56,344 nt of DNA from a virus (Duplodnaviria > Caudoviricetes): IMG/VR virus record IMGVR_UViG_3300045996_002189, positions 1-56,344 of that record, one strand, 5' to 3'. Position 1 is the first letter of the stretch. The number at the start of each line of letters is the position of its first letter. The position numbers and the translations under genes were made by a program. Shown in pieces: positions 10,069-51,374 of this stretch. The notes under the pieces are model-generated. The model saw only the letters and a program-made list of their open reading frames with translations, did no database searches and was not told where the DNA came from.

Positions 10069-10085
10069 TGGGAGTCTCCAGGCAG

Positions 10086-26018: not shown

Positions 26019-26326
26019 TCGGATTCCTCACCAGAAGCCTCCGGCGCCTTCTGCGTGCCGAAGTAAGCGCAGTTGATGGCCGCGCCGACCGCTTCCATCG
26101 AGGCGATGATCGGCGGCGACATCCTCATGATGTCGGCAGGCGTCATGTCCGGCAGTTCATGCTTCAACCCGACCATCATGATGTCGGCGAGTTGCTTCGG
26201 GTCCATCAAGTTGTAGCCGTCGGGGTAGCGTTGGGACAGTTCCGCAATGGCGTCCCAGTCATAGCGCAGGGTTTGCGTCTTACCGCCAAGTTCGACTTGG
26301 ACGGTTCCAGCGATGTTGTTGGCCAT
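25985..26326 (-). CDS. Tail assembly chaperone (gpG-like)
   Basis: Start MANNIAGTVQVELGGKTQTLRYDWDAIAEL at 26326; ends ENPQKK; lies just before the tape measure gene. Confidence 0.85.
   Translation of the reverse strand: MANNIAGTVQVELGGKTQTLRYDWDAIAELSQRYPDGYNLMDPKQLADIMMVGLKHELPDMTPADIMRMSPPIIASMEAVGAAINCAYFGTQKAPEASGEESENPQKKAAKRA
26012..26018 (-). other. Programmed -1 frameshift slippery heptamer A AAC CCT
   Basis: GAA AAC CCT near the end of the chaperone gene fits X XXY YYZ and joins it to the downstream frame. Confidence 0.75.
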
Positions 26327-26415
26327 GAAATCCGAGGGTGAGAATGGAGTGGAAGGGAGAAGGTGAGGGGAAGGAGAAACGCGGGAACCAGAGAGACCGG
26401 AGAACCCGGAGGGAG

Positions 26416-26676
26416 CTACGGCAACATCATCCGTCGCCGCAGAGCCGCGCGAAGCTGGCCGTGGAGATAGCCGCGCTCGCGCTTCGATAACGCCACCCAT
26501 CTCTGGGCGAGTGGCGAAACTTGGGGAAACTTGGCTGAGCACACCACCAGCGCCTCGTCCACAGCCTCCCAAAGCTCGGGATAGTCCAACTCCATCAGCC
26601 AGCGCCGTGCTGATTTCGGGGGACTGTAGATCCCGGCTTCCAGCACACGTCGGGGAGTGGACCGATCACAGGCCAT
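26416..26676 (-). CDS. Hypothetical protein
   Basis: 86 aa from MACDR, overlapping the upstream stop; no recognisable motif. Confidence 0.4.
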   Translation of the reverse strand: MACDRSTPRRVLEAGIYSPPKSARRWLMELDYPELWEAVDEALVVCSAKFPQVSPLAQRWVALSKRERGYLHGQLRAALRRRMMLP

Positions 26677-27064
26677 AGGCGTAGAGCTTCCACGCGGGCA
26701 TAATGAAGATGTACTCATGCTCAACGCCGCTGAACAACTCGGGTGGGTCGCGGTCGCACAGCACGTAGAGCATATCGCCGCGAGGGTCGGTCGGGTGGCC
26801 GGACGGCTCAACATCGGTGATGATCGCCCCCCGCGCCAGATACGTCACCCGCTGCCCGACGACATACGGGGCAATCGGCTCGGCTGCCTCCATCTGGAAG
26901 TCGTGCGCCAACGCCATCGTGCGCTGACCGTCATCGCCGCGCTGGTCCATCAGCACCCGGTACGAGACGTTGTAGGGACCGCCGTAGAGGTCGTGGACCG
27001 TGCCCAGGCCACGCGGGTCACCTAGCGTTACTCGAACCCGCTGGCCTTGGGCAAAGGCAGCCAT
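26666..27064 (-). CDS. Hypothetical protein, two SH3/KOW-like repeats
   Basis: FAQGQRVRV...G.V and YVVGQRVTY...GAII repeats. Confidence 0.6.
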   Translation of the reverse strand: MAAFAQGQRVRVTLGDPRGLGTVHDLYGGPYNVSYRVLMDQRGDDGQRTMALAHDFQMEAAEPIAPYVVGQRVTYLARGAIITDVEPSGHPTDPRGDMLYVLCDRDPPELFSGVEHEYIFIMPAWKLYAYGL

Positions 27065-29035: not shown

Positions 29036-29242
29036 TCAGGAAGCCGACCCGTTGATATTGGACGACCACTGCCGCACCGGAGCGTAGCCGTCGTCACCAA
29101 CGGCATCGTGCGTGCGGACGAGAGCGGCAGGCTGATGCTTACGACCGGAGTCGCCAGCACAGTGGTAAACCTGCCCCTGCAGGTCGCCGTAGTGATGCTT
29201 TGAGCAGACGGGGCAGGTGTAGATGCCTCGGGTGGATGTCAT
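29036..29242 (-). CDS. Small Cys/His hypothetical protein
   Basis: 68 aa, CPVC..H...C...H; TGATG coupling with the GIY-YIG gene. Confidence 0.5.
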   Translation of the reverse strand: MTSTRGIYTCPVCSKHHYGDLQGQVYHCAGDSGRKHQPAALVRTHDAVGDDGYAPVRQWSSNINGSAS

Positions 29243-30213
29243 CAGAGAAGGCTCAGTTGGTCGGGGTGCGATGGCAGAGGAGCAGGAGCGGGACGGTCGG
29301 GGGAGGTGGGAGTGGGCGGCATGGCTTCAAGACCTTCCTGATATACCTTTAGGACCGTCTGTTTGCCAACACGGCACTTTTCACAGATGTACCGCAGAGA
29401 CTTTCCGGCAGACCGCAGTTTGAATATCTCCTGCCGCAAGGCTTCCGGCATAACCCGGTCGTAGTTCTTGCCGCCGCCTTCCCGCATGCACCAATTGCGG
29501 ATAGTGTCCTTGGTGGTGTTGTAGTCCTTGGCGATATCGACGTAGGTTTCGCCAGCCTTGCGGCGGGCGACGATTTCGGCAACTTGTTCTTTGGTTAGGG
29601 AGCGGTGCAGGTCACTTAGCTTTTGGACATACTCCACAGGCATCTTGCGTCCACGCAACTTCGCGGCCCGCTTTTCGATGGTCTCAGGAGACTGCTTGTG
29701 GCCGCGCTTCGCATCCCCGATCTTGCGGCAAAACTCAGCGGACTTCTTTTTGCCACGCCTCGTTGCTGCTAACTTTTCCTCGTGCTCCGGGGTGCGTTTT
29801 CGCCCACTCATAGTAGCTGACATCTTGGATCGTTGGGCATCCGAGATCACCTTCCCCATCGCAGCAGCAGACATCTTCGCCCTGGATTTTCCGTCTCTCT
29901 TGGTCCCCAGTTGGCTACCAGCAACTCTGCAAATGTTATAGGGACGAAGGGAGTCTTCCAAGAACGCTTTGTCTAAATAGACCTGCTCGCGAGGAATCAG
30001 ATTTTCCGGCACAGGAACGACTTCGATCACTGAGAAATCAAAGGCATCTTCGCCGTATTTATTCCACGCCCTCTGCAGATAACCATTGCCGTGACGGTTT
30101 CCCCGCAAATCCTTCCAGTGATCAATCTTCCGGCGTTCTAGGTTGATGGCACTGCCATAGTAGCAACGCCCATTCACAGTGTTAGTGATTTTATAAATTC
30201 CTGACACACCCAT
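29242..30213 (-). CDS. Free-standing GIY-YIG homing endonuclease with NUMOD3-type repeats and HTH
   Basis: SGIYKITN.VNG.CYYGSA..L..R...H...L, REQ.YLD, YNI; repeated MS....G.K.S.E motifs. Confidence 0.92.
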   Translation of the reverse strand: MGVSGIYKITNTVNGRCYYGSAINLERRKIDHWKDLRGNRHGNGYLQRAWNKYGEDAFDFSVIEVVPVPENLIPREQVYLDKAFLEDSLRPYNICRVAGSQLGTKRDGKSRAKMSAAAMGKVISDAQRSKMSATMSGRKRTPEHEEKLAATRRGKKKSAEFCRKIGDAKRGHKQSPETIEKRAAKLRGRKMPVEYVQKLSDLHRSLTKEQVAEIVARRKAGETYVDIAKDYNTTKDTIRNWCMREGGGKNYDRVMPEALRQEIFKLRSAGKSLRYICEKCRVGKQTVLKVYQEGLEAMPPTPTSPDRPAPAPLPSHPDQLSLL

Positions 30214-33355: not shown

Positions 33356-34585
33356 ATGGAAACACCAGTACGCAAGGTCACTTACAAGCTTTACCCGTCG
33401 CGGGCTCAATTGGTTGCGCTGCGGGAGACCATGCAGATGCACCAACAACTCTACAACGCCTGCCTAGAGCAGAGAATTGACGCTTACCGGAAAACTGGAA
33501 AATCAATCGGTTACGTTGAACAATGCCGCGAACTCACCAATCTGCGCCGGGAGTGCCCGGAATTCGCAAAATTCAACAGTTCGTCGCAGCAGGCTACGCT
33601 TCGTCGTCTCGACAAGGCGTTCAAAAATTTTTTCGAAAGGGTGAAGAAAGGAAAACGAGCAGCCGGTTTTCCTCGTTTCAAATCGCTTGCAGGATATCCC
33701 GGATTCGGTTTCAAAACCCATGGTGACGGTTGGCGGTTCATGCCGGGAGCGGACTGGAAACATGGCAAACTCCGTCTCCGGGGCATTGGCGTCATTAAGG
33801 CGCGTGGACAAGCCCGCCAAAGTGGCGAGATCAAGTCATGCGAACTGCTGCATCGCGACGGCGCGTGGCATCTATCGCTCACCCTGGAGTGCCCGGAGAT
33901 CATCAGGTATGGCGGTACGGAGGCTTGCGCCTATGACTGGGGCGTCGAAACGTTCCTGACTTTGGCCATCGCCAACGGTGATGCAGAACCGTCCATGGAG
34001 ACGGTCGAGAATCCGCGCTGGTTCCAGTCCGAAAAAGAGAAGGTTGCCAACCTTCAACGTGCAGTAACAAGGAAGAAGCGGGGTTCAAACCGGCGCAGGA
34101 AGGCCGTCCGAAAATTAGCAAAATCCCGAGCTAAAACAGCACGTTGCCGTTTGGACTGGCAGCACAAACTGTCCGCGGGAATGGTTGGACGGTTCGCCTT
34201 GATCGCATCAGAAAGCCTGTCCATCATGAACATGACCGCTTCTGCAAAGGGAACGGTCGAAGAACCGGGCAAGATGGTTGCCCAGAAGGCAGGGTTAAAC
34301 CGGGAGATCCTGGACACAGCCCCAGGTCAGTTTGAATCCCTTCTCAAGTACAAAGCGATGGAAGCTGGTACATTGAGAATGAAAGCCCCAACGCGCACGT
34401 TGAAGTCGTCACAGACCTGCCCGTGCTGCGGCTCAATCAAAAAGAAAACGCTAAACGAGCGGACGCACAAGTGCGATGACTGCAAACGCGTTATGCCTCG
34501 CGACTTTGCATCCGCCTTGGTTGTTCTGAATTGGGCACTGCATAGTTTGAAGCAAAGTGGTCTGGAACAGGCCGAAGCGGCGTAA
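33356..34585 (+). CDS. tnpB: TnpB RNA-guided endonuclease, RuvC triad intact
   Basis: TYKLYP, LYNACL, GFPRFKS, YDWGV (D), SESL (E), GLNREILD, SQTCPCC..CDDC, PRDFASA (D). Confidence 0.95.
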   Translation: METPVRKVTYKLYPSRAQLVALRETMQMHQQLYNACLEQRIDAYRKTGKSIGYVEQCRELTNLRRECPEFAKFNSSSQQATLRRLDKAFKNFFERVKKGKRAAGFPRFKSLAGYPGFGFKTHGDGWRFMPGADWKHGKLRLRGIGVIKARGQARQSGEIKSCELLHRDGAWHLSLTLECPEIIRYGGTEACAYDWGVETFLTLAIANGDAEPSMETVENPRWFQSEKEKVANLQRAVTRKKRGSNRRRKAVRKLAKSRAKTARCRLDWQHKLSAGMVGRFALIASESLSIMNMTASAKGTVEEPGKMVAQKAGLNREILDTAPGQFESLLKYKAMEAGTLRMKAPTRTLKSSQTCPCCGSIKKKTLNERTHKCDDCKRVMPRDFASALVVLNWALHSLKQSGLEQAEAA

Positions 34586-37628: not shown

Positions 37629-38096
37629 TCAGCGGAAGCCAGAGGACATCCCGTTCGAGAACCAGCGGGTGGGTGCTTGGGCTGGGGCGGTGTCCCCAGT
37701 GAGGATCAGAATGGGGAAGTTGCCGGTATTGGAAACGCAGAAGAGGGAGACGGCAGAATACTGGCCTGCTGTCGTGAAGATGTCCCCCTTGGACCTGACT
37801 GTTCCGTTATTGACGGCGACCGTCACAGCCCCAGCACCGAGCTGGGCAACCGTGATTTCCCAGCCTGCCGGGACGTTGCTCGGCACGGTGAGGGATACCG
37901 GCGTCGCGCTGTTGAAGGAAATTTTGCGGCGGTTGTCAGCCACGGCAGCGGTGTAGTCGGCGGTCTTCGCGAGAACATCCTGTGTGGTCAGGTCTTCGAG
38001 GGTATCCACAAGGTCGTGGAGATCCTGAACCGACACGCCCCCGGATGTCGTCCCGGACATGTTGGCTTTGAGTTCAGCGAAGGTGCGAATTGTCAC
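37629..38096 (-). CDS. Small fibre/adaptor protein, paralog of 43015..43437, with C-terminal FSNGMSSGF
   Basis: GTG start at 38096 with AGGAGG RBS; RTFAELKANM...DLHDLVDT; VP....GW...Q.GAG.VT...TAGQYS. Confidence 0.8.
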   Translation of the reverse strand: MTIRTFAELKANMSGTTSGGVSVQDLHDLVDTLEDLTTQDVLAKTADYTAAVADNRRKISFNSATPVSLTVPSNVPAGWEITVAQLGAGAVTVAVNNGTVRSKGDIFTTAGQYSAVSLFCVSNTGNFPILILTGDTAPAQAPTRWFSNGMSSGFR

Positions 38097-38110
38097 TAGA
38101 AAGCCTCCTG

Positions 38111-38290
38111 CTATCTTTGGCGCAAGTGGACCCCGTGCAGGAAGCCGAAGATGATGATGAGCAGGGCCGCGAGTATCATGCCGATCTGGACAGCGGTACG
38201 GTGACTGGGCTTGGACTGCAACAGAACCCCAGCCACCCACACGCTGATGCCGGTGATGACGATGACACAGATCAGCCGGGTTAGGGACAT
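38111..38290 (-). CDS. Small two-TM membrane protein
   Basis: 59 aa, below the ORF-track cutoff: MSLTRLICVIVITGISVWVAGVLLQSKPSHRTAVQIGMILAALLIIIFGFLHGVHLRQR. Confidence 0.6.
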   Translation of the reverse strand: MSLTRLICVIVITGISVWVAGVLLQSKPSHRTAVQIGMILAALLIIIFGFLHGVHLRQR

Positions 38291-38508: not shown

Positions 38509-38862
38509 TTAAGGCACAGTTGGCTTGATGAGAGCCCGGTTGATGGTGAAGGTGTCCGAGTAGGCAGTGGCAATATCTCCGTCCACGTCTTCAAGCTCCA
38601 ATTCGGCATAGAAAATGCCTGATAAATTTTCGGTGTCTTCCGGCTTGAGATTGACCGTGAGCAATCCGGCGAAGGGGTCCGTCACGTCGATATCGTCCAG
38701 GGACGACTTGGCGATTGACGGCGTGCTGGAGAACTTGTCGCCTTTCCAGCGGGAGCAGCGCCAGCGCACGGTTGCGCCTGTGATGTCGAGTGGCTGGCCG
38801 TCCGCGTTGAACAGGGAGAACCGCAACCTTTTGGTGTCCCCGGCAAACATTTCAAAACTCAT
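38509..38862 (-). CDS. BppU-N-like Ig-fold fibre adaptor
   Basis: GDT..L.F.L...DGQPLDITGATV; G...V.L.PEDT..L.G..Y.ELE; ATGA-coupled to the repeat fibre gene. Confidence 0.7.
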   Translation of the reverse strand: MSFEMFAGDTKRLRFSLFNADGQPLDITGATVRWRCSRWKGDKFSSTPSIAKSSLDDIDVTDPFAGLLTVNLKPEDTENLSGIFYAELELEDVDGDIATAYSDTFTINRALIKPTVP

Positions 38863-41800
38863 GCGACCGCTACCTTACCTTCAAGAGCGATGTCTTTGAC
38901 AACGCTGCCTGTTAATTCAATTTCGTAGACGACAGACCCGGTCAGGTCGATGAATGCACCGAGGTCTGTCGCTCCGAAGGGGATGAACCGCGCTGTCGCA
39001 CCCGTTGACATAAGATGCAGGGTGCTGACGGCGTCCGCCGGGAACTGCGGCCGGATGAAGTCCGCAGAAACTTCGGAAGTTATTCGGCCAAGGACGGAGG
39101 ATGCAGCACCGGGTCTGGCAGGGAAGCCACGTTCCGCGACAGCATTGGAGTTAACCGCCTGGAGCGACAGCACGACGTCGGCCGTAACCGGAAGCGGTTT
39201 GCGCTCGGCAACGGTGACCGTCGTGATGCGGGGAAGAACGGAAGCGGCATCCGCGAAGACGGGCGGGACAACCCGGACAGCCACGCCGCTGGTGGTGAGT
39301 TTCTTTGCAACGGATGCGGCGGCACCGGACCGATCCGGGATGGTCCGTGCTGCGGCAGCGGATGTTCCCAGTTTGGGAAGAATGGAGGAGACAGATCCCG
39401 CTGCACCGGGAAGCGTGTAGTTCGCGTTGGATGCTGTGGACAAACGTCCCAGCGTAGATGCCGACGCGCCGGACCGGTTCGGAATCGTTCGCGCCGAGGT
39501 CGATGCCGACGACAGTTTGCCGAGCGTCGATGTGGCGGATGCTGTTCTTGTCGGGATCGTGCGAGCGGCGGACGAACTCGTGTTGATCTTCGGCAGAACC
39601 GATGTGACCGACGAGGTGTTCTGCGGAATGGTCCGGCTGGCGACCGCAGCAGCGACGGGTGTGCCGAGAGTCGATGCTGCCGCGCCAGACCTGTTTGGAA
39701 TGGTACGCGCTGCCGAAGACGCTGTCTGGAGCTTCTGTGTTACCGAAGCCGCCGCTCCGGAGCGGGCAGGTGGCACCCTTTGCGCGGTGACTGCTGTGGT
39801 CGGGCTTCCTAATGTCGATGCCGCAGCACCGGAGCGGTTGGGAATGGTACGGACCGCCGTGGATGCGGTTGTCGGTTTCTGGAGAGTGGACGCGACACTT
39901 GACGTGTTGGCAGGAATCGTCCGCGCCGCTGCGGCAGTCGTCTGAAGAGCAGAGAGAGAGGATGCGACAGCAGCGGTTCTGGCCGGGATTGTCCTGGCAG
40001 CAGTAGCCGACGACGTCAGTTTCGGCGTAAGGGACGCCGCAGTTCCAGATCGCGCCGGTATCGTCCGTGCGGCTGCTGCGGAAGTCGTCGGCTTGGCGAG
40101 CGTTGAGGTTGCCGCTGCGGTGACGCCTGGAACGGTTCTGGCTGCCGCCGCTGTCGTGACGAGTGCCGGGAAAGTCGATGCGGTTGCTGCTTCCCACGGA
40201 CCGACGCCGCCCTGAAATTCGCGGCTCCACTCCGTGGAGAATTCGTCCCCCGTCGATCCCGGCTCGGTTCGAACAGCAGCGGAGGTGTGGATAAGTTTCT
40301 TGAACGTAGCGGCAGAAGATGCCGTCCGGTTGGGGATGGTTCGTGCCGCTGTCGCTGCTGTCTGGATCGCGGGAAGGGCTGAATCCGCAACCCCTGCCCG
40401 GCTCGGTATCGTCCGCGTCGCAGAGACCGCCGTGGTGGTCTTCGATAGAACAGAGGAAGCGGATGCGGTTCTATCCGGTATCGTCCGCGTAGCGGTCGCG
40501 GAAGTCGTTGTTTTAGGGAATGTGGATGCAGCAGCCCCAAGCCTGCCAGGAATAGCGGCGGCGGTAGTCGTCGCCGCCTGGAGGACAGATGCTGCGGCAC
40601 CGGAGCGGTTGGGAATGGTACGGGACGCAGACGCTGCCGTTGTCGGTTTAGTCAGCGCGGATGCGGCAATGCCCGAGCGGCTTGGAATTGTTCTGGCGGA
40701 TACCGCGCTGGTTTGAAGATTCCCAAATGTGGAAGCAGCCGCCCCCGACCTGTTCGGTATGGTCCTGGTGGCGGTTGCGGCGGTGGTGGCCTTGCCGAGA
40801 GTTGACGCAGCGGTGCCAGAGCGACTGGGGATTCCTGTCGTCGCGGAAGCGGCTGTCGTGGCCTTGCCAAGAACGGACGCCGCAGCACCAGAACGGTTCG
40901 GAATGGTGCGCGCTGCTGTTGCGCTGGATTGAGTTGCCCCAAGCGTTGAAGCCGCCGCACCGGAGCGGTTCGGGATGGTCCGCGCTGAAGTCGCAGCCGT
41001 TGTCGGTTTGCCAAGGGTCGAAGCAGCCGCACCCGAACGCGCCGGGATAGTGCGCGCCGCTGTTGCCGCCGTCGTAAGGCTGCCAATTGCCGAGGCGGCT
41101 GCACCAGAGCGGGCCGGGATAGAGCGCGAAGCCGTGGCGCTTGTCGTGGCGTTGCCAAGAACAGATGCTGCGGCACCGGATCGGTTTGGGATCGTCCGTG
41201 CTGAGGCTGCCGCTGTCGTCGGTTTGCTGAGTGTGGAAGCGGCTGCGCCCGTTCGGTTCGGGATTGTCCGGGTCGCCGATGCCGCCGTCGTCAGCGCGCC
41301 AAGCGTTGATGCTGCTGCGCCGGATCGGGACGGAGCAGCCCGAGACGCCGTAGCGGCAGTGGTGGCCTTGCCAAGAACGGTCGCCGCAGCACCAGACCGG
41401 GCAGGAATTGTCCGCGCCGCCGAAACGCTGGTGACGAGTTTTCCGAAAGTGGATGCTACAGCGCCAGACCGTTCAGAGGCTGGAAGCGTGCTGGCAAACG
41501 AGTTCGTGAATTCAGTCGTAAACTCGCGCTGCGTCGATACGATGTAGGTGGATGCGTGAGCACGTAGCTTGCCGAACGAGGAAGAGACTGCCGCGTTGAA
41601 GGCCGGGATGACCTTGAGCGCAACCATCGGCAGGGCGTATAGGCGGGCAGTGCCGCTGGCGCCGTAGGTGTAGGAGGTGGCCGACGTGACGTACCGATAA
41701 CCGCCGGAAACTGTAATGTTGGTGTTGGCGGTGCCGCCCGTCGTCCCCGAGCGCGTTGCTGCAGTATAGTTGGCGTCGTTGGTGAAGGTGTCGCCACTCG

Positions 41801-42275
41801 GGCCTTCGGTGCCGAGCGCCGCGAAGATCAGCGTCTCGGCGGCAACCGTCGTTATCGAGCCGTTCCAGGTGCCTGACGACGCGCCGTTGGTCGTACTGGT
41901 AGCGTCCACGATTGACGGCGTTGCCGCATTGTACAGGCCGGAGACAGCGACAATTGTTATGGCGCGGGAAGTCAGGGTCGAGTGAGTGACCGTAATAATA
42001 TCGCCAGACGTAAGCGCCTGGGTAACGGGGGCCGTCAGGATGGCAGTGCGAACACCCGATGTCCCTGTACCCTGAACCGCCGTAACTTGCTGGGTGTAGG
42101 TATTCTTGGTGTCGCCGGCAGTTACCGTACCCCCCTGCGTCGCGTCGAACGCGGCCAGGATCACAATGGTTGAATTAACATCAACGGACTGACCCGCCGT
42201 CAGGGTATAGGCAATCGATGTCCCAGATGTTTTACTCTGGTTCGAGCCTAAATTGACGACGGTGGGATCGGCCAT
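38859..42275 (-). CDS. Long Ala/Thr/Ser-rich fibre protein with ~34 tandem 24-aa repeats
   Basis: Start MADPTV at 42275; ~220-aa beta-rich N-domain, then repeats of xRSGAAASTLGKxTTAATAARTIP. Confidence 0.8.
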   Translation of the reverse strand: MADPTVVNLGSNQSKTSGTSIAYTLTAGQSVDVNSTIVILAAFDATQGGTVTAGDTKNTYTQQVTAVQGTGTSGVRTAILTAPVTQALTSGDIITVTHSTLTSRAITIVAVSGLYNAATPSIVDATSTTNGASSGTWNGSITTVAAETLIFAALGTEGPSGDTFTNDANYTAATRSGTTGGTANTNITVSGGYRYVTSATSYTYGASGTARLYALPMVALKVIPAFNAAVSSSFGKLRAHASTYIVSTQREFTTEFTNSFASTLPASERSGAVASTFGKLVTSVSAARTIPARSGAAATVLGKATTAATASRAAPSRSGAAASTLGALTTAASATRTIPNRTGAAASTLSKPTTAAASARTIPNRSGAAASVLGNATTSATASRSIPARSGAAASAIGSLTTAATAARTIPARSGAAASTLGKPTTAATSARTIPNRSGAAASTLGATQSSATAARTIPNRSGAAASVLGKATTAASATTGIPSRSGTAASTLGKATTAATATRTIPNRSGAAASTFGNLQTSAVSARTIPSRSGIAASALTKPTTAASASRTIPNRSGAAASVLQAATTTAAAIPGRLGAAASTFPKTTTSATATRTIPDRTASASSVLSKTTTAVSATRTIPSRAGVADSALPAIQTAATAARTIPNRTASSAATFKKLIHTSAAVRTEPGSTGDEFSTEWSREFQGGVGPWEAATASTFPALVTTAAAARTVPGVTAAATSTLAKPTTSAAAARTIPARSGTAASLTPKLTSSATAARTIPARTAAVASSLSALQTTAAAARTIPANTSSVASTLQKPTTASTAVRTIPNRSGAAASTLGSPTTAVTAQRVPPARSGAAASVTQKLQTASSAARTIPNRSGAAASTLGTPVAAAVASRTIPQNTSSVTSVLPKINTSSSAARTIPTRTASATSTLGKLSSASTSARTIPNRSGASASTLGRLSTASNANYTLPGAAGSVSSILPKLGTSAAAARTIPDRSGAAASVAKKLTTSGVAVRVVPPVFADAASVLPRITTVTVAERKPLPVTADVVLSLQAVNSNAVAERGFPARPGAASSVLGRITSEVSADFIRPQFPADAVSTLHLMSTGATARFIPFGATDLGAFIDLTGSVVYEIELTGSVVKDIALEGKVAVA
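38990..41600 (-). repeat. Degenerate 72-bp coding tandem repeat (~34 units)
   Basis: Counted from the translation; one unit is 21 aa; two inserts carry EF[TS]TE[FW] motifs. Confidence 0.9.
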
Positions 42276-42277
42276 GA

Positions 42278-43018
42278 TCAGGTAACCGTCGTCAGGGTGG
42301 CGATGTCGGTATTGGAAATGCGCACGTTGTAGAGACGAACCCGGCGTATCCAACCACTGAAAGGCTGATCAAGGTTGATACGCTTTCCAAGCCGAACCAG
42401 TGTTGCCGACAGCGGCACAGTTACCGACGCGCTGGTGCCGGTGTAAGCGGTGCCATTCGCGTTGCCGTTGCCGTAGGTAGCGCCATTAGCGGCGGCGTAG
42501 GCCAGGGCCACCCTCTGAACAGCATTTGCCGCCCCACCAGTGGTTCCGACAGAGTAATTGGTTGACCCTGCTGGCCTATACTGGCTGCGCGCGTTTATCG
42601 CGGAGTCCATGTAGAATGCCATGAATCTCTCGGTGCCATCTGAGATACCGTTGTCCACGGAAATAAACCGCTGAAATGTGGCGGTTGAAGCGTTCGTCAT
42701 GAAGTCAACGACGAGGGTGCCCGCCGAGGTCGAGAAGGTTGTTCCGGCCAGGGTTGTAACCGCCATCTCATCCTGTCCACCGAACAACAGGCCGAGCGGC
42801 GCGTGCGTGGTCGGGTGGTAGTCGAAACGCGGCGTGTTGGCCCCTACCGTCTGAGTTGCCCCGGCGACATCGGTATAGCTGCCGCCGGACGTGCCCGTGA
42901 AAGTCCACTCGGCGGGCAGCGAGGACATGGCCGTGAAGTCGTAGTCCATGACGAGTGTCGGATCAGAGACGACCGCAGTCCGCCGCCGTCCGGCAGCCGC
43001 CAGCATGACCGGGATCAT
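42278..43018 (-). CDS. Spike-fibre/LamG-like adhesin
   Basis: Start MIPV at 43018 (ATGA overlap); DYDF....LP....FT......TD..G......NTPRFDY.P.T..PLGLL; G.IRRVR.YN. Confidence 0.75.
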   Translation of the reverse strand: MIPVMLAAAGRRRTAVVSDPTLVMDYDFTAMSSLPAEWTFTGTSGGSYTDVAGATQTVGANTPRFDYHPTTHAPLGLLFGGQDEMAVTTLAGTTFSTSAGTLVVDFMTNASTATFQRFISVDNGISDGTERFMAFYMDSAINARSQYRPAGSTNYSVGTTGGAANAVQRVALAYAAANGATYGNGNANGTAYTGTSASVTVPLSATLVRLGKRINLDQPFSGWIRRVRLYNVRISNTDIATLTTVT

Positions 43019-43437
43019 GCTCCGGTGTCTCCGCCGAGATAGACTTGCGGTGCCGTTCCCGCATTGGACACGACGACCACGTAGCAGATAGCGTACTGGC
43101 CTGCCGTCTTGGTGTGCGCTGCCCGACAGAACAGCGCCCCGGTGCCGCCAACGGCGATGGTGACCTGCCCCGCTCCCATCTGGATAACGCCGCATTCCCA
43201 GCCTGTCGGCGCATCGCTGGGAACCGTGAAGGTCACGCCTGACGCCGCGTTGAAGACGATCTTGCGACGGTTATCGGTGGTGGCGACGGCGGTATAGTTT
43301 GCCGTCTTCGTGGACAAGTCCTGAGTAGTGCGGTCTTCGTAGGTATCGACAATGTCGTGGATATCGAGCACATCGATGGCGTTGATGATCCCCGACGGCA
43401 TGTTGGTCTTGAGTTCCGCAGGCGTTCTAACCGTCAT
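43015..43437 (-). CDS. Small fibre/adaptor protein
   Basis: MTVRTPAELKTNMPSG...DIHDIVDT; KTANYT; VP.DAP.GW...QMGAGQVTI. Confidence 0.8.
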   Translation of the reverse strand: MTVRTPAELKTNMPSGIINAIDVLDIHDIVDTYEDRTTQDLSTKTANYTAVATTDNRRKIVFNAASGVTFTVPSDAPTGWECGVIQMGAGQVTIAVGGTGALFCRAAHTKTAGQYAICYVVVVSNAGTAPQVYLGGDTGA

Positions 43438-43452
43438 CGGGAATGCTCCAAT

Positions 43453-43480
43453 AAGAAAGGGGTCGCCCGAAGACGCCCCC
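43453..43480 (-). terminator. Terminator-like hairpin after phytase 2
   Basis: Minus strand GGGGGCGTC-TTCG-GGCGACCCC followed by TTTCTT. Confidence 0.6.
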
Positions 43481-43495
43481 GTTCAGTCTTAGCCG

Positions 43496-45295
43496 TTAGG
43501 CGACCGTGTAGCCGAGATAGACGTGTGCCTGATTGATTCCGGCATCGACCTGGACGCCGACGATATCAAGCATCTCAACGGCAGCACCGGGACCAGCAGA
43601 ACCGTCCTTGTCCCAGAGCAGGGCGGCTGTGCTGGAATCCTTGTTAACCAGCTTCAGAACCCCGTTCAGCCAAGGGTCGGAGGACGGAGCAAAGCTATTG
43701 GCTCGCAAGTCGGAGGCATCGATCAGGTCGAAACCCCAGGCGAAGTCCAGCACATGAGAATTCCCCGGTGCCGTTGCCTTGATGCGAAAGATGTCGTTGC
43801 CATCCCCGCCCGTCATGGTGATAGAGTGACCGGCGGCTACGATAATATCCTTCCCGGTATCACCATTGACGACCAGCGTGTGCTCACTGGAACCGCTATC
43901 GCGGATGATATTGTCATCGGCGTTACCGATGATGTCGTGGAATCCGGTGTCCTCGATGGTCAGGTGCTCGACATTGGCAGGCATCCTGTAGTCGATGGCG
44001 CTGCTTCTCAGGATGACGGTGTCCTGCCCGCCCTTGTCGGTTACGACATCGCCTGGATTGTCCACGACGTACACGTCGCCGCCGGTCAGACCGGACATGG
44101 CATCCGCGCCTCCGCCACCGTCCAGGCGATCCGATCCGGTGGTGCCTGTCAGGGTGTCGTTGCCGGACGTGCCGGTGAAGGTTCGGGTGGTGGCTGGAGT
44201 ATCAGCGATGGTGAAGAAAGGTGGCGGCGGCGGTGCGTTCGATGGCAGCGGCTCGACCGGCCCGGTGGCCCCAGTCTCGGTCCTCGGGTCGTAGCTGGTG
44301 CTAGTCTGAAGCCCGCCGAGTGAAGCGACAGAGGACCACGGCACCAGCTTGAAGTTGCTGGCATCATCGCCACTGTTTGAGTTGTCGTGAACGATGAACG
44401 CACCGCTGGTGAACTTGCCGCCAAGGTTGACGTTGGTCACATCCAAACCGTCGGTTTGACTCACACCGTCAATGCCGCCAGCAGACACGACCCCAAACTC
44501 GCCCAGATAGGCGTTCGAGTTGCGATCATAGACAGCATATTTGCTTTCGCCCTGGCTAGACGCGATCAGGTAGCCGTTGCCGTCCGCGCCGTAGTAGATT
44601 GTCAGTCCTTCGATATCGGCCACGAGATGCCCGGCGGAGCCAACCTGATCGACTATCGTGTGGGCGGTGCCGCTGGTCGGGTCGGTGCGGTACTTCTCGA
44701 TCTGCCCCGTCTCTTCGGCGGCGTAGAAGTAGCCTTTCTGGTCGTCAACGACCATGCCTTCGATCTGGCCTGAGAAGTTCAGCGTGCGGACGAGGGTGCC
44801 GGTAACGCTACCGCTGGAGCCGTCAAGTTCGAACTGCTTGACCTGGGTGCCGTTATCGGCGCTCACGAATGCGTAGGTCTTGCCGTTCAACTGACCCATC
44901 GTGAATCCGTAAGGCTCGTCCGCATAGCCGGTGTCGATGGTGCCAACTGAAGTCATTTCATCGGCAGTATCGTTGAAGTCATACGTCCAAAAATGGATAT
45001 CCCCGCTCTCCCTGCCCGACGCACCGATGATGGCTGTCGGCGTGGAGCCAAGGCCGAAATTGTAGGACACATCGACGTTATTGAAGGCGCTCCCGATATC
45101 TTCGCTTTCAACGCGGTTACCGGCGAAGTCGTATACGTCGATACGACCGTCCGTATAGCTCTTGTTGGTCCCGACGATCACGCTCTTGGACGTATCGGTC
45201 GGGTGGAGCAGGATGGCCGGATCGTCCATGAAGTCGCCGGTAGCGATGGCGTTCACGGTTTCGACAACGGGAGATACTGAGCCGGGGAAAGCCAT
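43496..45295 (-). CDS. Beta-propeller phytase with C-terminal RTX-like Ca-binding/T1SS-type domain (copy 2)
   Basis: DDPAI, GTNK, NNVD, EPYG, QIEG, AEE, ADIEG, YLIASSQG, TDGLDV, HD, NFK; then GTSGNDTLTG, GGGGADAM, GGDGNDIF, DFAWGFDLID; no signal peptide. Confidence 0.9.
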   Translation of the reverse strand: MAFPGSVSPVVETVNAIATGDFMDDPAILLHPTDTSKSVIVGTNKSYTDGRIDVYDFAGNRVESEDIGSAFNNVDVSYNFGLGSTPTAIIGASGRESGDIHFWTYDFNDTADEMTSVGTIDTGYADEPYGFTMGQLNGKTYAFVSADNGTQVKQFELDGSSGSVTGTLVRTLNFSGQIEGMVVDDQKGYFYAAEETGQIEKYRTDPTSGTAHTIVDQVGSAGHLVADIEGLTIYYGADGNGYLIASSQGESKYAVYDRNSNAYLGEFGVVSAGGIDGVSQTDGLDVTNVNLGGKFTSGAFIVHDNSNSGDDASNFKLVPWSSVASLGGLQTSTSYDPRTETGATGPVEPLPSNAPPPPPFFTIADTPATTRTFTGTSGNDTLTGTTGSDRLDGGGGADAMSGLTGGDVYVVDNPGDVVTDKGGQDTVILRSSAIDYRMPANVEHLTIEDTGFHDIIGNADDNIIRDSGSSEHTLVVNGDTGKDIIVAAGHSITMTGGDGNDIFRIKATAPGNSHVLDFAWGFDLIDASDLRANSFAPSSDPWLNGVLKLVNKDSSTAALLWDKDGSAGPGAAVEMLDIVGVQVDAGINQAHVYLGYTVA

Positions 45296-45331
45296 GTTGC
45301 TCACACGCTAAATGTTTAAAAGATCAGGAAT

Positions 45332-45368
45332 AGAAGAAGGGAGAGCCGCCCGAAGGCAGCCCTCCCCC
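45332..45368 (-). terminator. Terminator-like hairpin after phytase 1
   Basis: Minus strand GGGAGGGCTGCC-TTCG-GGCGGCTCTCCC followed by TTCTTCT. Confidence 0.65.
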
Positions 45369-45386
45369 TGTGTCAGTAATTCAGTC

Positions 45387-47180
45387 TCAGAGGCCGGTGT
45401 AGATATGCGCGTTGTTGATGCCCGCGTCGATCTGGACGCCGAGGATCGTAACCACTTCGACCGCAGCAACCGTGCTGTTGGCCGAGCCGTCCTGGTCCCA
45501 CATCAGTTTGACATCCGAACCGGAGTCCACCAGCGACAGCACGCCGTTGGCGAACGGGTCGGATGTCGGAGCGTAACTGCCTGCCACCAGCGGGGAAGCG
45601 TCGATCAGGTCGTCGCCCCAGGTGAAGTCAGAGATGGTGTTGCCTGCGCCAGTCGCCGCGTTGGTGGAGTAGCGGAAAATATCGTTATCGGCCCCGCCCG
45701 TCGCGGCCACGTCACGGGTACCAACGCGGATATTGTCGTCGCCGGTCATGCCCAAGAAGGTCATCGTGCCGGATGAGGTTCCGCTGGCCGACATGATGTT
45801 GTTGTCAGCATTACCCGTCACCGTGCGGTTGGTGCTGCCCTGGACGACGACATGCTCCATGTTGGACGACATGGTGTAGTTGCCGGTGTACCAGAGTTCG
45901 ACCGTATCCTGCCCGCCCGTATCGCTGGCAATGGTGTCGCCTGCCTCGGAGATGACGTACTGATCGTCGCCGGTCGATCCGTTGTAGGTGTCAGAACCGG
46001 CCAACCCGTTGAAATATTCCGGCGCACTGGTGCCGGTCAGGGTGTCGTTTGCGGACGTGCCAGTGTAGGTGATGGTCGCGGCATCGGTCGTGTTGATCGT
46101 GAAGAACGCAGGTGCGGCCGGGGCCGTGACCGGCAGGGCTGCGCGCGGGTCGTAGCTTGAGGCGTCGAGGGTAAGGCCGCCGAGGTTGGCGATCTCGTCA
46201 AACTCGATTAGCTTGAAGTTGCTGCTGTCGTTGCTGGTGTTCTCACCGTCATGGGCGACGAACAGTCCTTCATCGAACGCAGCCGTGCCCAGGTTGACGT
46301 TGGTTACGTCAAGTCCATCGGTCTTGGTCACGGCATCGATGGTGCTGCCATTCCCGGACAGGCTGAACTTGCCGAGATAGGTATTGGACCCCTGGAGTTC
46401 GTAGACGGCATACTTGCTCTCGAACTGCGACGAGGCGATCAGATAGCCCGTACCGTTATCGCCGTAATAGATCGACATGCCTTCCACGTCGGCGGTGAGA
46501 TTGCCGCCGGAGACGGTATCGACCGTCGTGTAAGTGCTGCCGGACGCGGGATCGGTGCCGTACTTGTAGATACCGTAGTCTTCTTCGGCGATGTAGAGGT
46601 CGCCGTTGACATCGTCAATAACGATGCCTTCAACCTGAGTGCTGTTGGGAACGGTAATGGTGCGGACCAGGGTGCCGGAAACGACGCCGGCAGACTCCGT
46701 CAATTCCCACTGCTTGACCGTGCTGCCGTTGTCTTCCGACGCAAAGGCGTAGAACTTCTCGCCCGTCGAGGTGGCGAGACGGCCCATCGCGAAGCCATAC
46801 GGCTCATTGGTGAAGCCGGTCGAGATCGAGCCGACCGATTCCATCTCGTCGCTCGTGGCGGCAAAATCGTAGGTGAAGAAGTCGATGGTGCCCGCTTCGC
46901 GATTGGTGGCACCAATCACGTTATCCAGCGAGCCGAGGTTGTAGCGCAGATCGACGTTGTTGAATGCGGTGCCGCTGTCCTCGGTATCGGTCAGGGTGGG
47001 GGAGGTGGAGATGTCGTAGGCGTAGAGACCGCCGTTGGTGTAGTCCTTGTTGGAGGTCACGAGCACGCTGCTGGCCGGTGTGGTCGGGTGGATCAGAATG
47101 GCCGGATCGTCGGAAAAGTCTCCGGTACCGGGGACATCGGGGGTCTGAGCGTCAGCGGTAACTGAACCGGGGAAGGCCAT
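45387..47180 (-). CDS. Beta-propeller phytase with C-terminal RTX-like Ca-binding/T1SS-type domain (copy 1)
   Basis: DDPAILIHP, SNK, NNVDLRY, TNRE, EPYG, QVEG, AEED, ADVEG, YLIASSQ, TDGLDV, AHDG.N, NFK; then GTSANDTLTG, GGADNDIF, DFTWGDDLID. Confidence 0.9.
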   Translation of the reverse strand: MAFPGSVTADAQTPDVPGTGDFSDDPAILIHPTTPASSVLVTSNKDYTNGGLYAYDISTSPTLTDTEDSGTAFNNVDLRYNLGSLDNVIGATNREAGTIDFFTYDFAATSDEMESVGSISTGFTNEPYGFAMGRLATSTGEKFYAFASEDNGSTVKQWELTESAGVVSGTLVRTITVPNSTQVEGIVIDDVNGDLYIAEEDYGIYKYGTDPASGSTYTTVDTVSGGNLTADVEGMSIYYGDNGTGYLIASSQFESKYAVYELQGSNTYLGKFSLSGNGSTIDAVTKTDGLDVTNVNLGTAAFDEGLFVAHDGENTSNDSSNFKLIEFDEIANLGGLTLDASSYDPRAALPVTAPAAPAFFTINTTDAATITYTGTSANDTLTGTSAPEYFNGLAGSDTYNGSTGDDQYVISEAGDTIASDTGGQDTVELWYTGNYTMSSNMEHVVVQGSTNRTVTGNADNNIMSASGTSSGTMTFLGMTGDDNIRVGTRDVAATGGADNDIFRYSTNAATGAGNTISDFTWGDDLIDASPLVAGSYAPTSDPFANGVLSLVDSGSDVKLMWDQDGSANSTVAAVEVVTILGVQIDAGINNAHIYTGL

Positions 47181-47329
47181 GAATTACTCTTCTGTTTAGT
47201 CATAGGGATGCCCTCCCGCGCCGAGTTTGGCGCAGGCTAGGGCGTGGACTTCCACCGCGCCGGAAGTGGCGCTGTAGTCGTGGTGGAAAGGGAGATGCCG
47301 CTGTTAGCCGGCTAAGAAGTTACGTCGTG

Positions 47330-48928
47330 TTAGGCTATTCCAGCCTGCGCCACGGTTTTGCCCCTGATGTGGAATTGCGCTGCCGTATTTGTCGAATTAT
47401 TGGAGATGCAGAGCACTTCGACCATCGCGCCCGCCCCCCCAGTCCGACGATGGTCGGTGCCGTTCTCGAACACGAAGGTCGTTGCGGATGCCGCCACCTT
47501 CTGGAAAGTGATGGTGCCGCTGGTCGAAGTTTGAAGCGCCCGGCACGTCCAGCCGGGATGAGCGTTGTCCGGTAGAGTCACGACGACATCAGTGCCGGGA
47601 TCTGTTGTGGTGTTTCTGTACAGGATTCCATCATCAAGCAGGAATGGTCCACGGGCAGCAGTCAGCGACCTTGAGTACGCCCCGCCACCATTTACGGCAG
47701 TGACGTTAAAATTGGTGGGGGTTGACGAGCTGCTTATGCCGCCGATGTGTCCGATCAGCTTTGGCTCACTGCTTGAGTTGATCGACACTACACCGACAAA
47801 CTGGGAGCCCGCCGGCTTGGTCCCAGCCATGAAAATGTTTTCCAGCGTGCTAGACGCGTACGACAGATTTGCTCTAACGACTGACCTGATCGTGTTTGAT
47901 GTTGCGGCAGGACTTCCGACAAAACACCAAACGTTGCGAAGCGAGCAACCGTTATTGACGCGCCAATCAATGATGTCGGTTACGGTTGCGTACCCAGAAT
48001 TAACGTCATTGAGCGCGATGAAGAAGTTATCGAAATGAACGTTGGAAATTGTGATGGCGGGATTGGTGGCGGTGTTGATAAACTTTACCACCGGCCCGGC
48101 AAAGAAGGTTGTTTCGCATTTTGTGTTCGTGAAGAACATTTGGCTTGGATTGTCATTGTTGGCGGCGGTCCCCTGCTCGATCAGGATCGCCCCCGCCTTG
48201 AACGACTCGAAACGGCAGCCGTAGAAGTAATTGGCGTTGACGGAGTCGGCGCTGTACCCGAAAGTTCCTGATGTTTCGGACATACTGTTGCGCAACCGAA
48301 CGCAGTATTCGGTCGTGGTGCTGCACCAGTCGAAAAAGCAGTTCATAACTCGGCTGTCCCACCACTCGACAGCATCGATTCCGTTGCCGGAATTGTTCAT
48401 GAACTTGCAATTGTCGATCAGAACACTGGATGCAAAAACAGTCCGAAGAAGTGAGCCAGTGTTATCCTGGCCGTGAAAGCAAAGGTCGCGAAAGACAGAG
48501 TCGCCGTTGCGTTCTTGTTGACCAGTCGTCCAGTCGCCGAAGCCGGAAAGATCGAGCAGAAAACCTGATCCCTGTTTCCTGATAATCGAGTTCCACCCGT
48601 CACCGAAGATTTTGATCTTCTCGGGAAGTATCAATGTGTTGGCGGTGATGTAGTAGTGTCCGGACGGAACGTAGACGGCCCCACCGCCGCCGGGCGATGC
48701 CGCAGCGGCAGCGATGGCATCAAGAAACGCCTGGGTGTCGATTGTTGCTCGGGCCGGCTTGTCGCCAGATACGGTAACTTCCGTCCCGATTGCGCCGAAC
48801 TCCTTGACGGAAAAGCACGTTCTTCCTGCCACCGTATCGATGAAGTCATGCATATCGCTGATGGTGGTGCCGCCGGTAACCCCCGACGGCATATTGGTCT
48901 TAAGCGTTGCTGGGGTTCTAGCGGTCAT
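47330..48928 (-). CDS. Beta-helix spike/depolymerase (pectate_lyase_3-like) flanked by adaptor-family N- and C-domains
   Basis: SVKEFGA.G...DTQAF.DAI.AA...GG.VYVPSG.Y; N-terminal RTPATLKTNMPSG..DMHDFIDT; C-terminal LP.NA.PGW.C..LQ. Confidence 0.85.
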   Translation of the reverse strand: MTARTPATLKTNMPSGVTGGTTISDMHDFIDTVAGRTCFSVKEFGAIGTEVTVSGDKPARATIDTQAFLDAIAAAAASPGGGGAVYVPSGHYYITANTLILPEKIKIFGDGWNSIIRKQGSGFLLDLSGFGDWTTGQQERNGDSVFRDLCFHGQDNTGSLLRTVFASSVLIDNCKFMNNSGNGIDAVEWWDSRVMNCFFDWCSTTTEYCVRLRNSMSETSGTFGYSADSVNANYFYGCRFESFKAGAILIEQGTAANNDNPSQMFFTNTKCETTFFAGPVVKFINTATNPAITISNVHFDNFFIALNDVNSGYATVTDIIDWRVNNGCSLRNVWCFVGSPAATSNTIRSVVRANLSYASSTLENIFMAGTKPAGSQFVGVVSINSSSEPKLIGHIGGISSSSTPTNFNVTAVNGGGAYSRSLTAARGPFLLDDGILYRNTTTDPGTDVVVTLPDNAHPGWTCRALQTSTSGTITFQKVAASATTFVFENGTDHRRTGGAGAMVEVLCISNNSTNTAAQFHIRGKTVAQAGIA

Positions 48929-50216: not shown

Positions 50217-51374
50217 TCAGACAATTATGATATCGAGTGGCGTCGTCGGTGCCGTCACGGCGGAACTTGCCAAGATCGGCCCTTGGAGGGAGACCGGGGA
50301 TGAATAGGTGCCGTTCGACAGAAAGGTGGCGGTGTCGATGATGCTCGCCTCGTCTCCTGTCGCGGCACCCATCGGCCACTGGTACAGGTTGGCCCCAGTC
50401 GGGGGCGAGAACCCGGCTATTTCTCCCGGCAAGTAGCCAGCAGCCAGCGCATTGATCTGCGTGTCCGTTGGTATCCAGTTCGAACACCAGAGCCAGTTTG
50501 AGTAGCGGCATGGAGCGAAATTGGTGCGCGGACTCGCTGTCCGCGCGCCGAGTTGGAGGACGCGGCAGATTTCCGTCGCCGACACGGGAGGGATGGCTGT
50601 TCCGACATAACTCGCCCCACGCTGCGTCTCCAGGATGACCTGAACGTCGGCGTTGGTCTTGGCAACCATGCCGACGTAGTACCACGTGTTGGGCTGCAGC
50701 GCCGAGATGATGTAGTTCTCTCGGTAGCTCGACCCGCTGGTTTCCGCCGAAGCCATCGCAATCTTGGTCTGGCTGGGGTCCCAAAGCAGACGGACGCGCG
50801 CGGCGCCTCCGGATGCCGATGTCAGGTCAAGACGCCCGAAGTCCGCCAGATAAACCGTGGCGGATGGCATATAGGTGAAGGCGACAAACCCACCGATATA
50901 CCAGTTGGCATTCGACATGCGCAGCAGGTTGGCCTGTGCGTCAAGGGAGAAGAACTGGTCCCGCGCGTTGATCCGGCGCGCTTTCGACGTATTCGACTTG
51001 ACTTCTTCCAGGTTGATACTGGAAACCGAGGGAGCGCCCGCAGTAAGGCGCAGGAAGGTAACCCAGGTCGTCGTGGTCGTCGCGATGAAGTTGAGCTTGT
51101 TATCCCCGGCCGCTGACGCATTGTAGCCGACCAGATCGCCGCCGCCTTGGGAGGTGCCCAGTTGGCGGAACATGATGACGCTGCTGTCGTTGTGCCAACT
51201 TAGCTGGTACTGCTTGTTGACCTCGGTCGCAACGGCACGGGTTGAGATCGCCGCAGACGTCCCGTCTGTATTGATGGTCAGGCGTCCGGTTACCGAATCC
51301 ACCGTGAACGTGGCGGGGCCGGTATTGGTCCAGGTTCCGCCGACTGGGAGAAGATTGCTGTAGGGCTGTGCCAC
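50217..51374 (-). CDS. CBM-like + LamG/concanavalin-like protein
   Basis: N-terminal NLL....W jelly-roll with FIATTTTTWVTF; LQPNTWYYVG, LQLGAR, I.ALA.G. Confidence 0.65.
   Translation of the reverse strand: MAQPYSNLLPVGGTWTNTGPATFTVDSVTGRLTINTDGTSAAISTRAVATEVNKQYQLSWHNDSSVIMFRQLGTSQGGGDLVGYNASAAGDNKLNFIATTTTTWVTFLRLTAGAPSVSSINLEEVKSNTSKARRINARDQFFSLDAQANLLRMSNANWYIGGFVAFTYMPSATVYLADFGRLDLTSASGGAARVRLLWDPSQTKIAMASAETSGSSYRENYIISALQPNTWYYVGMVAKTNADVQVILETQRGASYVGTAIPPVSATEICRVLQLGARTASPRTNFAPCRYSNWLWCSNWIPTDTQINALAAGYLPGEIAGFSPPTGANLYQWPMGAATGDEASIIDTATFLSNGTYSSPVSLQGPILASSAVTAPTTPLDIIIV

Follow-up and report, generated by a model that had tools for sequence, protein, structure and literature searches.

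We analyzed a 56,344-base virus record of IMG/VR (IMGVR_UViG_3300045996_002189), a linear contig with an estimated completeness of 62% to which we refer in its entirety as the window, and found within it a tandem pair of genes, phyA and phyB, that encode beta-propeller phytases ending in an RTX-type beta-roll and a conserved tail. Both are true beta-propeller phytases by family, fold and site residues, from which activity on phytate is predicted, and they are accessory, moron-like genes in a variable slot of the fiber and spike block of a soil virus that resembles siphophages of Rhizobium. We give somewhat better than an even chance to the reading that they act as soluble extracellular phytases, exported through the type I secretion system of the host or freed at lysis; their route of exit and their benefit to the phage are suggested by the features described below. 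In many soils phytate makes up the largest pool of organic phosphorus, and its main natural degraders are described as the beta-propeller phytases (PMC9414882). The pair represents a phage route into the soil phosphorus cycle that is rare and so far undescribed, and the combination in a phage of a beta-propeller phytase, an RTX exoenzyme and an auxiliary gene has not been described before. The phosphorus genes described so far in phages serve mostly uptake or the cytoplasmic and periplasmic pools. If soluble phytases do leave the infected cell, viral auxiliary metabolism would extend to an extracellular, mineral-bound nutrient pool, and the pair would offer a candidate example of phage proteins that enter the type I secretion system of the host.

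A first-pass annotation, made from the letters of the sequence, had described two paralogs of about 600 residues that both begin MAFPGSV and carry the beta-propeller phytase motif series. The two genes lie on the minus strand, encode proteins of 597 and 599 residues that are 53% identical, and contain every motif listed (DDPAI, NNVD, PYG, EG, AEE, DxEG, SSQ, TDG, HD and NFK). An alternative GTG start for phyB at 45304 would add the residues MSN; all seven members of the family begin MAFPGSV or MAFTGTV. A hidden Markov model search with Pfam PF02333, the family of EC 3.1.3.8/3.1.3.26 (cut-off 21 bits), gave 232.1 bits (E 1.4e-68) for phyA and 233.8 bits (E 4.2e-69) for phyB, and a scan of the whole record with the same family returned the pair at E 1.8e-72 and 5.1e-71. 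The match begins at profile position 32 or 33 with residue 6 or 7 of the proteins, indicating that the signal-peptide part of the profile is absent. A sequence search of the PDB aligned residues 6-347 to the Bacillus phytase structures 3AMR, 1POO, 1QLG and 1CVM/1H6L (E 1.8e-54 to 7.5e-53), and identity to Bacillus phytases is 35-40% across the whole propeller. We modeled phyA with AlphaFold2 from a seven-sequence alignment and obtained a mean predicted local distance difference test score (pLDDT) of 67, with most of the propeller at 70-94, for example residues 30-270. When this model was searched with Foldseek, the top three structures were 3AMR, 1POO and 1QLG (E 1.4e-22 to 1.1e-21; TM-score 0.76-0.78 on the target), followed by generic WD40 propellers at E ~3e-8. 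Profile and fold thus bear out the phytase identity proposed in the first pass.

Residue conservation was scored across 30 diverse aligned phytases, two of them Bacillus enzymes. Sixteen charged or polar columns are invariant in all 30, and phyA keeps every one of them. The invariant residues of phyA include D21, D24, D25, K45, D77, E184 and E200, which align with D51, D54, D55, K75, D101, E210 and E226 of the Bacillus enzyme P0093, and E233, Q252, D282, D288, D311 and N314, which align with its E259, Q278, D307, D313, D335 and N338; conserved polar columns also line up with Bacillus R121, Y158 and D257. We take the aligned Bacillus residues to be calcium and phosphate ligands. The 36 polar columns that are conserved in at least 27 of the 30 phytases are kept at 34 positions in phyA and at all 36 in phyB, the aligned calcium and phosphate ligand columns among them. 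The fold to which these residues belong is described as six-bladed, with six calcium sites and two phosphate sites (PMC9414882).

The same fold could serve another substrate, such as a phosphorylated host-surface or matrix polymer, polyphosphate or nucleotides, with a part in host recognition or matrix penetration, and we consider this quite improbable. It would find some room in the two departures of phyA, Q12 and L262, at positions occupied by E and R in 27 or more of the 30 phytases, and in an Asp that this family has at the position aligned with the Bacillus lysine K179; that position, however, is not conserved among the 30 aligned phytases either. The polysaccharide-active modules that otherwise fill the genomic slot, and the fusion of the propeller to a lectin-like module in two relatives (P0008 and P0244), both described below, would also suit a different substrate. 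Against it stand the full set of 16 invariant columns, the retention of nearly all conserved polar columns, and the fact that the identity to proven Bacillus phytases runs over the whole propeller.

Neither protein has a Sec-type signal. A Kyte-Doolittle scan found no hydrophobic N-terminal core in either, the maximum 12-residue means at the N-terminus being 0.78 and 1.23 compared with 2.17 in a Bacillus precursor, which agrees with the first-pass annotation. Beyond the propeller, the domain order is a Pro-rich linker, a short RTX block, a degenerate roll and a conserved tail of ~85 residues. We counted five strict RTX nonapeptides in phyB and three in phyA; phyB has four nonapeptides in register at residues 375-410 and exceeds the 23-bit cut-off of PF00353 both as a protein (27.7 bits) and in a six-frame scan (33.5 bits). 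The phyA RTX block matches the RTX blocks of hemolysin and adenylate cyclase, and residues 370-504 of the phyA model form a regular roll with short strands about every nine residues (pLDDT 75-85). The tail is modeled with low confidence, with pLDDT below 50 from residue 532 and throughout residues 532-597. The proteins had been described as ending in the motif DF.WG.DLID; in fact about 75 more residues follow it.

This tail is conserved to the same degree as the propeller, with mean pairwise identities among family members of 62-64% and 62%, respectively. When the C-terminal 243 residues were used as a query, the 118 matches listed comprised 113 bacterial RTX proteins and five members of the family itself, and some of the bacterial proteins are named as type I secretion target domain proteins. 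The last 108 residues gave 31 local matches, 13 of which lie within 40 residues of the C-terminus of the subject. In addition, phyA residues 516-582 align to residues 561-633 of P0192 and ~962-1015 of P0128, segments that are recognized by TIGR03661, the NCBIfam type I secretion C-terminal target domain. The partial NCBIfam matches to the tail region are all to RTX-repeat families (EglC glycanase, serralysin, PueAB esterase and RTX hemolysin), whose members we take to be type I secretion substrates. These alignments suggest that the architecture is fairly described as having an RTX/type I secretion-type tail, with membership in a secretion-signal family indicated indirectly. RTX repeats are described as unfolded at cytoplasmic calcium levels, and the signal as an uncleaved C-terminal segment of ~60 residues (PMC3034196).

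The window is DNA of a Rhizobium-siphophage-like soil virus. It encodes a lambda-like tail set consisting of a tail tube protein and gpL-, gpK- and gpJ-like proteins, and the closest relatives of the gpJ-like protein are those of 100-122 kb Rhizobium siphophages, at 33% identity. Four sequencing runs from two studies that contain near-identical pieces of the window are soil metagenomes, and one of them may be the source sample of the record. Nearly all of the long open reading frames (ORFs) are on the minus strand. The location of the phytases inside a virion gene block, as proposed in the first pass, is confirmed by flanking genes that match phrog_3758 (virion structural, E 6.6e-30), phrog_5939 (tail protein, E 3e-18), the Pfam fiber-tail adaptor Gp77 and, weakly, tail spike phrog_2234.

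Six IMG/VR loci (L091-L096) are syntenic with the window at identities of 45-74%. All share with it the order of ORFs of 620, 977, 385, 154 (Gp77-like), 96 and 138 residues (phrog_3758), and further on a 24-residue-repeat protein followed by small ORFs and head-tail genes. The stretch that separates the 138-aa gene from the repeat protein varies in content among the records. In the window this slot holds a 532-aa beta-helix protein, phyA, phyB, a 140-aa ORF and a LamG protein; in relatives it holds, for example, a 1100-aa fusion of LamG, beta-helix and Gp77-like parts or a fiber-like 324-aa ORF, and the region upstream of the conserved block contains an SASA esterase fusion. PF02333 was present in only one of the five related viral records that were searched, the window being one of these five. 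Given that the flanks are syntenic and the slot content varies, the phytase pair is accessory cargo of a hypervariable enzyme slot.

RTX genes recur among these phages. PF00353 occurs in three of the five related records, two of which encode RTX-only ORFs, three in G001 (366, 451 and 395 aa) and one in G004 (415 aa). The neighbors of these ORFs are genes for a DNA invertase, a dCTP deaminase, RNase H, an ATPase and a queuine-tRNA-ribosyltransferase-like protein, a location outside the structural modules that, together with the three of five records, indicates that RTX proteins are recurrent non-structural cargo. The RTX-only ORFs (L109 6825..8072, plus strand; L110 5549..6904 and 9319..10419, both minus; L111 5436..6623, plus) contain 5-12 strict nonapeptides, lack an N-terminal signal, and end in an acidic residue followed by hydrophobic ones.

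Relatives with the full architecture were found as five metagenome proteins. Four of them (P0002-P0005) are 58-73% identical to phyA and the fifth, P0007, is 82.7% identical to phyB and is its ortholog, indicating that both paralog types exist elsewhere. A further protein of 746 residues, P0008, begins MAFPGSV and has a propeller 58% identical to that of phyA; its residues 366-746 correspond, at 54% identity, to residues 5-385 of the 385-aa ORF of the window. P0244, truncated at its 5' end and 62% identical to P0008, is a second fusion of a propeller to a homolog of this ORF. The eight signal-less propellers group together in a quick maximum-likelihood tree, in a single clade with a Shimodaira-Hasegawa-like approximate likelihood ratio test (SH-aLRT) value of 100, next to cellular phytases that carry cadherin-like or N-terminal RTX modules as fusions. 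This clade and its exchange of RTX and lectin-like tails, along with the RTX-only genes in relatives, add to what the first reading had noted, and the clade offers a testable system for the shuffling of phage enzyme heads. Full-length relatives are few. No GTDB representative has the propeller-plus-tail form, the best 80 of 220 loci stopping by query residue 454, and none of 41 plasmid records covers at least 80% of the query. Two scans of metagenome contigs found no relatives, and viral contigs yielded none with a single-protein query or with a C-terminal alignment; a scan of viral contigs with P0008 recovered its lectin part only, in contigs already known.

Host DNA misassembled onto a phage contig, or a cellular region miscalled as viral, is an explanation that we regard as hardly credible. 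The record does come from a low-depth metagenome assembly, with a word depth of ~1-7 in the soil runs, and the phytase domain is closest to cellular Rhizobiales proteins, the nearest named genome being Microvirga at 46% identity. Misassembly, which the first pass had flagged, is nevertheless unlikely given the tail genes on both sides within one strand-consistent block, the codon usage and the soil contigs that bridge both sides of the pair. These contigs span phyB and downstream genes (X1 record 1, 42610-43898) and the phyA start, leader and upstream gene (X1 record 7, 47265-47525; X3 record 23, from the second study, 47082-47329). In codon usage the phytases correlate with other large phage genes at r 0.84-0.87, compared with 0.50-0.51 for a transposase and a homing endonuclease in the window, and their G+C content at third codon positions (0.74-0.80) is within the range of the tail genes. 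This tail-gene-like composition suggests long residence in the phage and not recent capture. The placement of the signal-less propellers in a clade of their own likewise disagrees with an artifact.

The first-pass annotation also placed a TTCG-loop hairpin after each phytase gene. The hairpin after phyA is strong (-27.7 kcal/mol, z -4.7, none of 200 shuffled sequences as good) and is the strongest terminator-like site of the window, with the longest stem, while the one after phyB is imperfect (-15.6 kcal/mol, z -1.2, with 24 of 200 shuffled sequences folding as stably). Terminator-like sites across the window numbered 9, 23 and 12, compared with 15.4, 17.7 and 12.1 expected; these counts are not above chance, and thus only the strength of the phyA hairpin can be used as evidence. 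The ~140-149-nt leader upstream of phyA is also structured (-52 kcal/mol, z -3.4, with 1 of 200 shuffled sequences folding as stably) and matches no Rfam family. The window as a whole gave no Rfam matches and has no tRNA genes.

We favor the reading in which both proteins are catalytically competent, calcium-dependent enzymes that are soluble outside the cell and are not fixed parts of the virion. Having no Sec signal, they would exit by a C-terminal route. The short RTX roll would keep the chain unfolded in the low-calcium cytoplasm, and the conserved 85-residue tail would be recognized by a host type I system composed of an ABC (ATP-binding cassette) transporter, a membrane fusion protein and a TolC-like channel. 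Extracellular calcium would then fold the roll and the propeller, and lysis would release any enzyme not yet exported. Outside the cell, the pair may hydrolyze calcium phytate and thereby supply phosphate to the infected cell, a lysogen or kin. A calcium-dependent propeller, an RTX roll, the lack of a Sec signal and a tail related to a secretion target domain suggest that export is the best fit, and the terminators of the genes, the non-structural RTX cargo of relatives and the precedent of a Sec-secreted phytase in other phages (L007-L009, below) point the same way.

A number of observations weigh against export of soluble phytases. The genes resemble the structural genes in codon usage and share the strand of the late block in which they sit. 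phyA falls below the PF00353 cut-off (17.5 bits as a protein, 22.2 bits in the six-frame scan). Neither phytase matches TIGR03661 at E <= 0.1, and it is through the aligned bacterial segments that the proposed type I secretion tail is supported. Eighteen of the 31 tail matches are internal or more than 40 residues from the end of the subject, and in P0031 the RTX block precedes the propeller, indicating that the RTX/tail module is not always a C-terminal signal. P0008 and P0244 are signal-less and have a lectin-like C-terminus with no RTX repeat, from which it follows that type I secretion cannot be the common route of the clade. Substrates of type I systems are usually encoded beside their exporter (PMC3034196), and the ABC transporter family PF00005 was found in none of the five related records, including the window, which represents ~62% of its genome; a host system could serve for export despite the lack of a linked exporter. 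No sigma-70-like promoter was found on the minus strand between 42000 and 50000. Regulation by the Pho system was considered and dropped, the Pho-box pattern having six matches compared with 3.6 expected and none within 43000-47400. Finally, the tyrosine integrase family was found in none of the five related records, so that a lysogenic phase is putative, although one relative carries a provirus label. The HK97 capsid family was likewise found in none of the five.

In the main alternative, the proteins are carried on the virion, with the propeller as a swappable head of a multi-enzyme fiber system that acts during adsorption on the cell surface or soil matrix, docked through the RTX roll and C-terminal module or through small adaptor-like neighbors. 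We consider this unlikely, while recognizing that the setting of the genes speaks for it: the pair lies between virion-annotated genes, whose strand and codon usage it shares, and the fusions in the slot and surroundings of relatives, which join LamG, beta-helix and Gp77-adaptor parts or an SASA esterase, are typical virion depolymerase architectures. The lack of a signal peptide is as expected for virion proteins, other calcium-binding modules (Calx-beta and CBM60) occur in fiber-like proteins of the window, and a signal-less phytase fusion in another phage contig (L006) adjoins a 'virion structural' gene, phrog_10356. The 385-aa ORF, a homolog of which is joined to the propeller in P0008 and P0244, keeps a fixed place in six of six loci, but it has no PHROG match or cultured-phage relative and a poor model, and is only a putative virion protein. 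Moreover, the phytases have no N-terminal anchor or other module in common with proteins of the window, their only match within it being that of phyA to phyB, and no PHROG family matches them at E <= 0.001. A strong terminator follows phyA inside the block, the RTX genes of relatives lie in non-structural regions, and RTX repeats are reported to be unfolded at the calcium level of the cytoplasm, where virions assemble (PMC3034196). A more specific version, in which the propeller is a phosphatase head mounted by interchangeable docking modules (the RTX roll here, the 385-aa lectin-like module in P0008 and P0244), strikes us as decidedly doubtful. If true, it would be the first virion-borne phytase-type enzyme, one that might strip calcium-bridged phosphate from the host envelope or from phytate-coated surfaces at adsorption; we found no described precedent in the literature for a phosphatase head on a virion.

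The view that no phage phytase has been described is only roughly true. INPHARED (50,697 phage records) has no tblastn match to phyB, and a survey of phosphorus genes in terrestrial phages does not mention phytase in its main text, with supplements that may list some (PMC10987575). One study gives 'phytase (phy)' a single line among viral auxiliary metabolic genes of activated sludge (PMC10589946). In IMG/VR, seven other contigs carry a phytase, four of them away from a provirus edge. Three of the seven loci are at record ends and are alike in score; one of these, L003, has 34% G+C and a 382-aa ORF with a signal peptide. L007-L009, contigs of an HK97-type phage, encode a phytase of 368 residues that has a classical signal peptide (PF02333 E 5e-136; for example L009 6167..7273, plus strand), its gene being flanked by those for a C5 DNA methyltransferase and the portal protein. 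L006 (9944..13372, plus strand), a 124-kb contig with 35% G+C, encodes a 1142-aa signal-less phytase fusion (PF02333 E 7e-96) that has weak galactose-binding-like matches and adjoins a transposase as well as the structural gene mentioned above. The phytase of L007-L009 resembles the pair in that it too is a PF02333 gene carried by a phage and surrounded by structural and packaging genes, but it is a single copy with a signal peptide and no RTX repeats, belongs to a host of ~41-44% G+C, and is ~36% identical to phyA.

Comparison with better-known systems places the pair between several of them. With Bacillus PhyC and TS-Phy, phyA and phyB share the Pfam family, the modeled six-bladed fold and the conserved calcium and phosphate ligand positions, whereas they lack the Sec signal, have an additional 250 residues of linker, RTX roll and tail, and are phage-encoded as a tandem in a fiber block. 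The paralogs may mimic bacterial phytases with tandem domains; we found no paper on 'dual-domain' phytases. Like bacterial RTX exoenzymes such as serralysins, PueAB-type esterases and rhizobial glycanases, they have an enzyme body, nonapeptides, a C-terminal tail and no N-terminal signal; unlike them, they have 3-5 clear repeats, no direct TIGR03661 match and no exporter genes nearby, and are encoded by a phage. Four bacterial RTX phytases have been predicted, and the word 'phage' does not appear in the review by Linhartova et al. (2010) (PMC3034196). In common with the phage phosphorus genes pstS, phoH and phoA/phoD, the pair could raise phosphate supply and is accessory and patchy among relatives, but it would act outside the cell on an insoluble soil pool, is duplicated and RTX-tailed, and lies in a fiber/spike block. 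Multi-tailspike depolymerase systems such as G7C gp63.1/gp66 and CBA120 TSP1-4, which also appear as weak fold matches, similarly have many enzyme-bearing fiber-like genes, small common N-terminal modules and module swapping, whereas the phytases have neither a common N-terminal module nor a PHROG structural family. Neutral-pH, calcium-dependent enzymes with a built-in RTX tail may also interest feed and soil biotechnology.

Table 1. Positions in the window of the phytase genes, their domains and associated features
Feature	Coordinates	Strand	Description
phyA	45387..47180	-	597 aa, ATG; phytase propeller lacking a signal peptide, then Pro linker, RTX beta-roll and C-terminal tail
phyA propeller domain	46146..47180	-	~residues 1-345; residues 6-347 align to Bacillus phytase chains
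phyA RTX-type beta-roll	45651..46076	-	~residues 369-510; PF00353 at residues 373-407
phyA C-terminal tail	45390..45650	-	~residues 511-597; candidate secretion or docking module
Structured leader upstream of phyA	47181 (or 47190)..47329	-	~140-149 nt
Intrinsic terminator after phyA	45337..45368	-	14-bp stem, cUUCGg loop, T-rich tail
phyB	43496..45295	-	599 aa from ATG; paralog, same architecture
Imperfect hairpin after phyB	43455..43484	-	cUUCGg loop, T-rich tail
532-aa pectate-lyase-like beta-helix protein	47330..48928	-	PF12708 E 3.8e-8; phrog_2234 E 4.7e-4; first gene of slot
140-aa ORF	43015..43437	-	N-terminal ~37-aa module and C-terminal 'virion structural' module; homologs in 6/6 related loci
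385-aa lectin-like ORF	50217..51374	-	Position kept in 6/6 loci, between 977-aa ORF and Gp77-like adaptor

Among the neighbors of the phytases, the 385-aa ORF is stand-alone in the window and in 13 relatives. Its model is poor (pLDDT 57) and the best fold matches are LamG/jelly-roll pairs with a TM-score of 0.2-0.3 over the whole model, so that 'lectin-like' is only a lead. We found no cultured-phage relatives of this ORF or of the 977-aa and 532-aa ORFs. The 532-aa and 140-aa ORFs and a third minus-strand ORF (37629..38240) have in common an N-terminal module of ~37 residues (MTxRTPAxLKTNMPSG...) and a C-terminal module of ~70 residues that matches PHROG 'virion structural' and 'minor tail' families, and in the 532-aa protein the beta-helix is inserted between the two. 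The repeat protein whose homologs come after the variable slot in related phages is a 1164-aa ORF (38859..42353, minus strand) made up of ~30 units of a 24-residue repeat, with R-[TS]-I-P occurring 25 times, mostly at exact 24-residue spacing, in residues 314-1027; it belongs to no Pfam or PHROG family, and in its DNA the 72-nt period can be traced through only 2.6 copies.

The head-tail and tail-tube region of the window is interrupted by two genes of deviant codon usage, the transposase and the homing endonuclease to which the phytases were compared above. The former is of the insertion sequence (IS) type (33356..34585; phrog_506, E 6.8e-77) and lies on the plus strand, opposite to the block; the latter (29242..30213; phrog_314, E 3.3e-34) is on the minus strand. 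A 1599-aa ORF (20785..25584) occupies what its size and position suggest is the tape-measure position, and has no profile match. Between the tail tube gene and the ORFs at 25584..27064 that lie immediately upstream of it is a 596-aa ORF (27195..28985, minus strand) with a right-handed beta-helix and, at its N-terminus, a calcium-dependent CBM60 module; for a depolymerase-like protein this location is unusual. Two ORFs on the minus strand downstream of the gpJ-like gene, one of 1649 residues that contains three Calx-beta domains (3621..8570) and one of 750 residues (1408..3660), have a common C-terminal part with 40-44% identity, within which the 750-aa ORF matches the PHROG pectate lyase family phrog_27797. 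With this and the other lyase-type finds, the phage has at least five beta-helix or lyase-type proteins.

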